Below, piece after piece: positions 54,510 through 55,462 of a DNA stretch of 64,000 nucleotides. The translations under genes were made by a program, and so were the position numbers. The stretch is from the NCBI RefSeq assembly GCF_030013595.1, contig NZ_CP122768.1; one strand, given 5' to 3'. The first letter of the stretch is position 1, and every line of letters starts with the position of its first letter. The DNA is from Escherichia coli. GTDB taxonomy: Bacteria; Pseudomonadota; Gammaproteobacteria; Enterobacterales; Enterobacteriaceae. The notes beneath the pieces were generated by a model. That model saw only the letters and a program-made list of their open reading frames with translations, ran no database searches and was not told the origin of the DNA.

Positions 54510-54698
54510 ATGAATAACAATGAACCAGATACTCTGCCTGATCCCGCGATAGGCTATATCTTCCAGAATGATATTTTGGCGTTAAAGCAGGCATTTTCAC
54601 TGCCTGATATTGATTATGCCGATATTTCCCAACGCGAACAGTTGGCCGCGGCATTAAAACGCTGGCCGTTGCTGGCAGAGTTTGCGCAACAAAAGTAG
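54510..54698 (+). CDS. bcsR: Cellulose biosynthesis protein BcsR
   Basis: ORF 54468..54698 trimmed to MNNNEPDTLPDPAIGYIFQNDILALK... (62 aa). Confidence 0.8.
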   Translation: MNNNEPDTLPDPAIGYIFQNDILALKQAFSLPDIDYADISQREQLAAALKRWPLLAEFAQQK

Positions 54699-54709
54699 GG
54701 GATTGGTGA

Positions 54710-55462
54710 ATGGCCGTACTGGGATTGCAGGGGGTGCGGGGAGGCGTGGGGACAACAACCATCACCGCCGCATTAGCCTGGTCATTACAAATGTTGGGAG
54801 AAAATGTCCTGGTGGTCGATGCCTGCCCGGACAACTTGTTGCGCCTGTCATTTAACGTTGATTTTACCCACCGTCAGGGCTGGGCCAGAGCTATGCTGGA
54901 TGGCCAGGACTGGCGTGACGCTGGGTTGCGCTATACCTCGCAACTCGATTTGCTGCCTTTTGGTCAGTTATCCATTGAAGAACAAGAAAATCCACAGCAC
55001 TGGCAAACCCGGCTGAGCGATATTTGCTCCGGCTTACAGCAACTAAAAGCCAGCGGGCGTTACCATTGGATTTTAATCGACTTACCGCGTGATTCCTCGC
55101 AGATAACCCACCAGCTGCTGAGTTTGTGCGATCACTCGCTGGCAATCGTCAATGTGGATGCCAACTGCCATATCCGGCTGCATCAGCAGGCGCTGCCGGA
55201 TGGCGCGCATATTTTGATTAATGACTTCCGTATCGGCAGTCAAGTTCAGGACGATATTTACCAGCTTTGGTTGCAAAGCCAGCGCCGATTACTGCCGATG
55301 CTCATTCATCGTGATGAAGCGATGGCTGAATGCCTGGCGGCTAAGCAACCAGTCGGTGAATATCGCAGTGATGCGCTGGCGGCTGAAGAGATACTGACGC
55401 TGGCTAACTGGTGCCTGTTGAACTATTCCGGGCTGAAAACGCCAGTCGGGAGTAAATCATGA
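54710..55462 (+). CDS. bcsQ: Cellulose biosynthesis protein BcsQ (ParA/MinD-like ATPase), intact
   Basis: Complete 250-aa ORF MAVLGLQGVRGGVGTTTITAALA... with no early stop codon. Confidence 0.9.
   Translation: MAVLGLQGVRGGVGTTTITAALAWSLQMLGENVLVVDACPDNLLRLSFNVDFTHRQGWARAMLDGQDWRDAGLRYTSQLDLLPFGQLSIEEQENPQHWQTRLSDICSGLQQLKASGRYHWILIDLPRDSSQITHQLLSLCDHSLAIVNVDANCHIRLHQQALPDGAHILINDFRIGSQVQDDIYQLWLQSQRRLLPMLIHRDEAMAECLAAKQPVGEYRSDALAAEEILTLANWCLLNYSGLKTPVGSKS

Follow-up and report, generated by a model that had tools for sequence, protein, structure and literature searches.

How would an Escherichia coli strain have lost the capacity to make cellulose when its bcsQ gene, the one disabled in K-12, reads through from start to stop? 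An earlier note on this DNA had proposed that inactivation followed a route different from that of K-12, by way of bcsA and bcsE, and that independent lesions in the same pathway would suggest repeated loss under domestication or host passage. We followed up this proposal by analyzing the whole 64-kb stretch of DNA in which the locus lies (hereafter, the window) together with related public assemblies. The best explanation, which we hold with a probability of roughly 0.88, is that two mutations, both inherited, have inactivated a complete E. coli-type bcsEFG / bcsRQABZC locus.

Organization of the cellulose locus

The E. coli cellulose locus, bcsEFG / bcsRQABZC, takes up the right-hand 13 kb of the window. 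Nine bcs genes are arranged in two divergent operons in the canonical order, as judged from the ORF map and from colinearity with the annotated loci of KE55, HCP5S3_I2, and MG1655 (Table 1). By the features that define an E. coli-type (type II) Bcs system, the gene order is as expected and both BcsR and BcsQ are full length. Two further features of this type are missing from the window, namely, a single 872-aa BcsA joining the N-terminal domain, TMD, GT2, and PilZ, and a BcsE that retains its GGDEF* domain together with the I-site, R415xxD418.

Table 1. Coordinates of the bcs genes, the two lesion sites, and the intergenic region in the window
Feature	Position	Strand	Remarks
bcsG	50919..52598	-	intact, 559 aa
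bcsF	52595..52786	-	intact, 63 aa
bcsE pseudogene	52783..54238	-	523 codons in wild type; premature stop at 52967-52969
Remaining copy of 9-bp direct repeat TCAACGCGG	53025..53033		sole copy left; deletion junction
Divergent bcsE/bcsR promoter region	54239..54509		unaltered in window
bcsR (yhjR)	54510..54698	+	intact, 62 aa; Pfam CBP_BcsR, E=3e-17
bcsQ	54710..55462	+	intact, 250 aa; codon 6 is TTG
bcsA pseudogene	55459..58075	+	872 codons in wild type; premature stop at 55969-55971
bcsA lesion site	55867..55873	+	window, A6+G; NCTC 10082 and GCA_053635055.1, A7+G; wild type, A6+GAG
bcsB	58086..60425	+	intact, 779 aa
bcsZ	60432..61538	+	intact, 368 aa
bcsC	61520..64000	+	first 827 codons, open up to the window end

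Between yhjV and bcsG (50033-50815), the window contains a tandem pair of Ldr type I toxin repeats, which are 300 nt long and 93% identical and lie 483 bp apart. KE55 has three copies at the same site.

State of bcsQ and bcsR relative to K-12

In the window, codon 6 of bcsQ is TTG (Leu), versus TAG in K-12 MG1655 (nt 17, T>A), where the gene is annotated as a pseudogene. The TAG codon is the published K-12 lesion (PMC5944007); the nonsense allele is attributed to Serra et al. 2013, as cited in PMC5944007 and PMC4287979. The window thus does not carry the K-12-type cellulose-negative allele. Both bcsR and bcsQ are translated without a stop and match their Pfam profiles, with BcsQ aligning to CBP_BcsQ over the entire profile (1-234/234, E=1e-114). 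From position 54019 to 55870, an interval that covers both genes, there are zero nucleotide differences between the window and KE55.

The 80-bp stretch of the window around bcsQ codon 6 has an exact match in 3,543 RefSeq complete genomes. The corresponding 80-mer with the TAG codon is matched exactly in 348, and the five genomes listed among these are K-12-type laboratory strains (e.g., MG1655 and C600). In E. coli, bcsQ with an intact start is the rule, and its presence here is unremarkable. With the partners BcsA and BcsE gone, bcsR and bcsQ are intact merely because neither has been hit so far, and nothing suggests that selection retains intact BcsR and BcsQ.

These results agree with the earlier note, which had described a complete 250-aa bcsQ ORF next to an intact bcsR and had called for a comparison of the bcsQ start with K-12. 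Only the interval given for bcsQ needs adjusting, as 54510 is the start of bcsR and bcsQ proper starts at 54710. The note had also described bcsA and bcsE as broken, and they are, by a frameshift at codon 139 and a 116-bp deletion, respectively. The route to inactivation therefore differs from that in K-12 as proposed, running through these two lesions and not through the bcsQ nonsense codon.

Frameshift in bcsA

Where wild-type bcsA has GAG AAA AAA GAG CTC, the window has GAGAAAAAAGCTC, which is shorter by a net 2 bp. KE55, HCP5S3_I2, and GCA_900479545.1 all have GAGAAAAAAGAGCTC at this position. The A tract of the window (55867-55872) runs directly into GCTC. As a result of the frame breaking at codon 139, 138 native residues are followed by 32 aberrant ones before the premature stop. 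The Pfam domains GT2, Cellulose_synt, and PilZ are all encoded in the other frame, and the transmembrane part is out of frame too.

Two relatives, GCA_053635055.1 and NCTC 10082, have an A7 tract at the corresponding position (7781 and 4347 in the respective sequences). The A7 allele is a net change of -1 and reads ...EKKSSVI*, versus a net change of -2 for the A6 allele of the window. The bcsA lesion of the lineage is therefore the loss of a G from AAAAAAGAG, which produces the A7 tract, and the window has one A fewer still (A6). The extra missing A may be either a further slip or a homopolymer miscall or assembly error; the bcsA frame is broken whichever of the two tracts is correct.

The bcsA allele of the window was present in 0 of the 5,283 RefSeq complete genomes that returned a match, the best of which (97.6%) corresponds to a 2-bp gap. 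Programmed frameshifting in bcsA was considered and rejected. All 5,283 matched RefSeq complete genomes differ from the 80-mer of the window, and the top-ranked matches all do so by exactly the 2-bp gap of the in-frame wild type.

A single slip would bring either A6 or A7 back into frame: A8 would read EKKKL, which is equivalent to E139K, and A5 would read EKKL, with one residue deleted. One could therefore imagine that the slippage-prone A7 tract made by loss of the G is still changing and that bcsA is an accidental contingency locus, switching the synthase on and off. We regard this as quite improbable; if it were true, output would be capped by the irreversible deletion in bcsE.

Deletion in bcsE

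Relative to the wild type, bcsE is missing 116 bp at 53024/53025. The wild-type segment is flanked by two copies of TCAACGCGG, and the deletion would have arisen between these copies by slipped-strand or short-homology deletion. The resulting product consists of 405 native and 18 aberrant residues. Codons 406 to about 443 are lost, including those of the c-di-GMP I-site R415TGD, and the frame is shifted afterwards. Positions 405-440 of the Pfam CBP_BcsE profile are accordingly absent, and the C-terminal part survives out of frame only. In addition, the usual 4-nt overlap between bcsE and bcsF is gone, and bcsF now lies 181 nt downstream of the premature bcsE stop.

The I-site residues R415/D418 bind c-di-GMP and lie in the GGDEF* domain (BcsE 349-523), which also binds BcsQ (PMC7439463). 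The deletion removes the I-site and shifts the frame of what remains of this BcsQ-binding domain.

The deletion junction gave 0 matches in JGI metagenomes and GTDB species representatives. Among RefSeq complete genomes, the 116 bp interrupted the alignment in every one of the listed top matches (best 12 of 520 full-coverage records). Look-ups for exact copies of the truncated BcsE (423 aa) and of the BcsA C-terminal ORF (737 aa) likewise found no match. We think that these look-ups were empty because PGAP assemblies list no pseudogene products, because a different bcsE start is used, and because of the A7 frame. Indeed, the NCTC annotation places the bcsE start elsewhere (419 aa).

Assemblies that share the lesions

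Since the bcsA lesion touches a homopolymer, and since the window (A6) differs by exactly one A from the two other assemblies (A7), we considered whether both lesions might be sequencing or assembly artefacts in an operon that is really intact. GCA_053635055.1, which was found by exact BcsB look-up and stands for 17 of the 24 contigs read for the window's BcsB allele, is identical to the window over 15.9 kb except for one extra A in the bcsA tract. UFZA01, which was found via BcsC and stands for itself and three similar places, shows no SNPs relative to the window over 12.5 kb and has the same extra A. UFZA01 is named as the NCTC 10082 genome in a published letter (PMC7590859). The 116-bp bcsE deletion, with its clean 9-bp direct-repeat ends, is found in both of these independent assemblies. 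Both also lack the G of AAAAAAGAG, so that bcsA is out of frame in all three sequences.

The remainder of the window argues in the same direction. Apart from IS elements present in the relative only, there is no other indel between the window and its nearest relative, HCP5S3_I2, over 64 kb, and no internal stop interrupts any of the 37 annotated genes upstream of dpp. Thus, stray indels and broken genes do not occur outside bcs. An artefactual origin, which the earlier note had named as a possible objection, is extremely improbable, since the bcsE deletion recurs in two independent assemblies along with a bcsA frameshift at an identical position. Both lesions are genuine and inherited.

The lesions are fixed in a set of roughly 20 public assemblies, which represent either separate isolates or one collection strain that was resequenced. 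As in the clade-inherited genotypes of Nhu et al. 2024, they recur across the GCA_053635055.1 and NCTC 10082 groups, although the isolates in these groups may all derive from one strain.

We note that NCTC 10082 carries a novel LT-IIa-like heat-labile enterotoxin locus, which lies outside this window (PMC7590859).

Independent loss in the nearest relatives

Among the records listed in both broad searches, only HCP5S3_I2 and LCP30S3_I5 were 99.9-100% identical to the window; the other listed records reached at most 98.9% over the 25-kb query. Both are pig faecal isolates from the UK, and a literature search under their names returned no match. HCP5S3_I2 was examined in detail, and the state of LCP30S3_I5 was deduced from near-identical match rows.

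Over the entire 64-kb window, HCP5S3_I2 differs by 19 SNPs (about 0.03% divergence). Its bcsA and bcsE genes are intact, and its locus carries other lesions. The bcsQ gene has a nonsense mutation, W120* (TGG to TAG, window position 55068; 12884 in the HCP5S3_I2 sequence), and a 1,199-bp IS5/ISKpn26 element is inserted at CTAG 54263-54266, at a distance of 28 bp upstream from the start codon of bcsE (10884-12082 in the HCP5S3_I2 sequence). On the evidence of the match rows for LCP30S3_I5, both pig isolates share W120* and have IS5 in the bcsE-bcsR intergenic region. GCA_900479545.1 has W120* without IS5 and is wild type at the bcsA site; W120* therefore predates IS5.

Because no lesion is common to both sublineages, parsimony suggests that the locus was intact in their ancestor and that the cellulose genes were lost at least two times, once through bcsQ W120* (with IS5) on the sister branch and once through bcsA/bcsE on the branch of the window. 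On this comparison of sequences, the reading of independent loss holds, in agreement with the repeated independent loss within one pathway that the earlier note had suggested. The lineage also resembles those of Nhu et al. 2024 in having at least one truncating bcs mutation (here bcsA and bcsE) and different lesions in close relatives (W120*, IS5).

Five gene- or operon-disrupting differences separate the window from HCP5S3_I2 over 64 kb, and four of them fall within the 13-kb bcs locus (binomial P of about 0.007, in a post hoc test). The remaining one is the IS insertion in the pig isolate's wecH. SNPs are not clustered in this way, with 4 in the 13-kb bcs locus versus 15 in the 44 kb upstream, and their density is not raised in bcs. 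A first impression that SNPs were concentrated in bcs was dropped after the whole-window comparison added the 15 upstream SNPs. On the W120* branch, bcsC has the derived missense changes Y351N and A421V (window 62570 and 62781; polarised against K-12), at which the window keeps the K-12 residues, and the bcsE SNP of that branch is synonymous. Except for the clustering of disruptive events, we see no sign of selection at the sequence level.

Two further insertion sites were observed outside the locus. In the window, wecH (25166-26161) is an intact 331-codon ORF; the copy in HCP5S3_I2 is interrupted by an insertion of 1,338 bp whose annotation is ISVsa5 (IS4-like). Between ysaA and avtA, at about 9700-11060, the window has an IS3-family element with two ORFs, at 9700-10230 and 10335-11057. 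The pig isolates share this element, under the annotation IS1397.

Predicted consequences for cellulose synthesis

The N-terminal domain of BcsA recruits BcsG and is specific to E. coli-type BcsA (PMC11470070). As the frame breaks at codon 139, after this domain, the transmembrane, GT2, and PilZ parts would go untranslated. Without a translated TMD-GT-PilZ core there would be no cellulose synthase, and the strain should be cellulose-negative. Rho-type polarity on bcsBZC and bcsFG is also plausible, because the lesions would leave 2.1 kb ahead of bcsB and 181 nt ahead of bcsF untranslated.

Some residual function could be retained if translation restarted within bcsA. In the -2 frame of the window, the BcsA core can be read from an ATG at 55862, which lies within GATGAG (MRKKLGHLS...). 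The ORF that begins there (55862-58075, 737 aa) holds every catalytic Pfam domain (TMD-GT-PilZ) and lacks the BcsG-recruiting domain, and the missing N-terminal domain is one that is peculiar to E. coli-type BcsA (PMC11470070). An N-terminally truncated 737-aa synthase of this kind might make some unmodified cellulose. However, the ATG is not preceded by a Shine-Dalgarno-like sequence (the upstream sequence is CAGCATCTCG), and ribosomes in the upstream frame translate across it to 55971. In the A7 relatives, moreover, the ATG is out of frame and a TGA lies ahead of the core frame, as worked out from the sequence. With bcsE broken as well, we consider such residual synthesis very improbable and retain the prediction of a cellulose-negative strain.

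Domestication, decay, or selection

Cellulose loss in K-12 is usually read as domestication. By this precedent, the lesions in the window might have arisen while a culture-collection strain was being stored or passaged in the laboratory. One carrier is such a strain (NCTC 10082), and the mutations are rare in the collections searched: the bcsA allele occurs in none of the 5,283 matched RefSeq complete genomes, and the bcsE deletion is neither among the listed top RefSeq matches (best 12 of 520) nor in JGI metagenomes. Three observations nevertheless make domestication unlikely. Of the 24 contigs read for the window's BcsB allele, 17 represent the lesion pair, sister strains straight from pig faeces have their own, different bcs lesions, and bcs truncations occur in natural isolates of nearly all common STs (PMC10881479). 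Thus, of the earlier suggestion of repeated loss under domestication or host passage, the repeated loss stands, and domestication or host passage is no more than a suggested cause; one carrier is a culture-collection strain, but the sister lesions are in fresh pig faecal isolates. We infer that the window represents one more recurrent natural bcs loss, under positive or relaxed selection, rather than laboratory domestication.

Whether a natural loss of this kind is adaptive, as in the virulence proposal for ST95, or reflects neutral decay under relaxed selection in the niche of the lineage is a closer call. Each sublineage has more than one bcs lesion, as expected after a first hit neutralises the rest of the pathway, the SNP density in bcs equals the background, and bcsC of the sister lineage has acquired the two derived missense changes described above. 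Set against these points, two independent first hits occurred in a lineage that is only about 0.03% diverged, four of the five disruptive events lie within bcs, and cellulose loss has been shown experimentally to raise virulence in ST95 (PMC10881479). We therefore view neutral decay as a serious possibility, at somewhat under even odds.

Relation to known cellulose losses

Convergent loss of bcs function in E. coli has been described by Nhu et al. 2024 (PMC10881479), who found truncations in 74/76 common STs and, among the STs examined, in every one of Shigella and 90% of those of Salmonella, together with 27 independent bcs loss-of-function mutations within ST95. The per-ST table of that study includes double truncations of bcsA and bcsE in several STs (e.g., 5% of ST10), although no ST is dominated by this pattern (PMC10881479). 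The inference of recurrent, independent bcs loss is right but already published (Nhu et al. 2024, PMC10881479), and the lineage of the window is an ordinary case of a natural loss of cellulose production that is well documented and recurs in E. coli.

Individual precedents match the window in part. As in K-12, a cellulose-negative genotype results from a bcsRQABZC lesion in an otherwise complete locus; in K-12, however, a single bcsQ SNP is responsible and its repair restores cellulose, whereas here bcsQ is wild type and two other genes are hit. ST95 ExPEC likewise have an early bcsA frameshift fixed in a clade and independent lesions in close relatives. The frameshift lies at residue 186 in ST95 versus codon 139 here, and the relatives here are NCTC 10082 and pig faecal isolates.

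In the O104:H4 2011 outbreak strain (Richter et al. 2014, PMC4287979), a frameshift at bcsE codon 448 (+C) was proposed as the cause of the cellulose-negative phenotype. A nonpolar bcsE deletion in AR3110, a cellulose-positive K-12 derivative, gives a curli-only colony form (PMC4287979). O104:H4 shares with the window a C-terminally truncated BcsE, and its bcsQ and synthase operon sequence are unchanged. The O104:H4 lesion is milder than that of the window, in which the truncation begins at residue 406, the I-site itself is removed, and bcsA is broken too. Finally, ATCC 8739 has a bcsE nonsense SNP and E. coli HS has a large bcs deletion (PMC5944007). Commensal or laboratory strains have thus lost cellulose in additional ways that differ from that of K-12, with other types of mutation in other strain backgrounds.

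For annotation, bcsA and bcsE should be listed as pseudogenes and the strain scored as cellulose-negative. Two repairs would be required to restore cellulose here, versus the single-codon fix that suffices in K-12. Beyond annotation, the significance is small. Within a lineage diverged by about 0.03%, bcsA and bcsE were broken on one branch and bcsQ on the other, where the promoter region was hit as well in the pig isolates. This contrast between branches is a compact and mildly useful illustration of the convergent bcs loss seen at the population scale.
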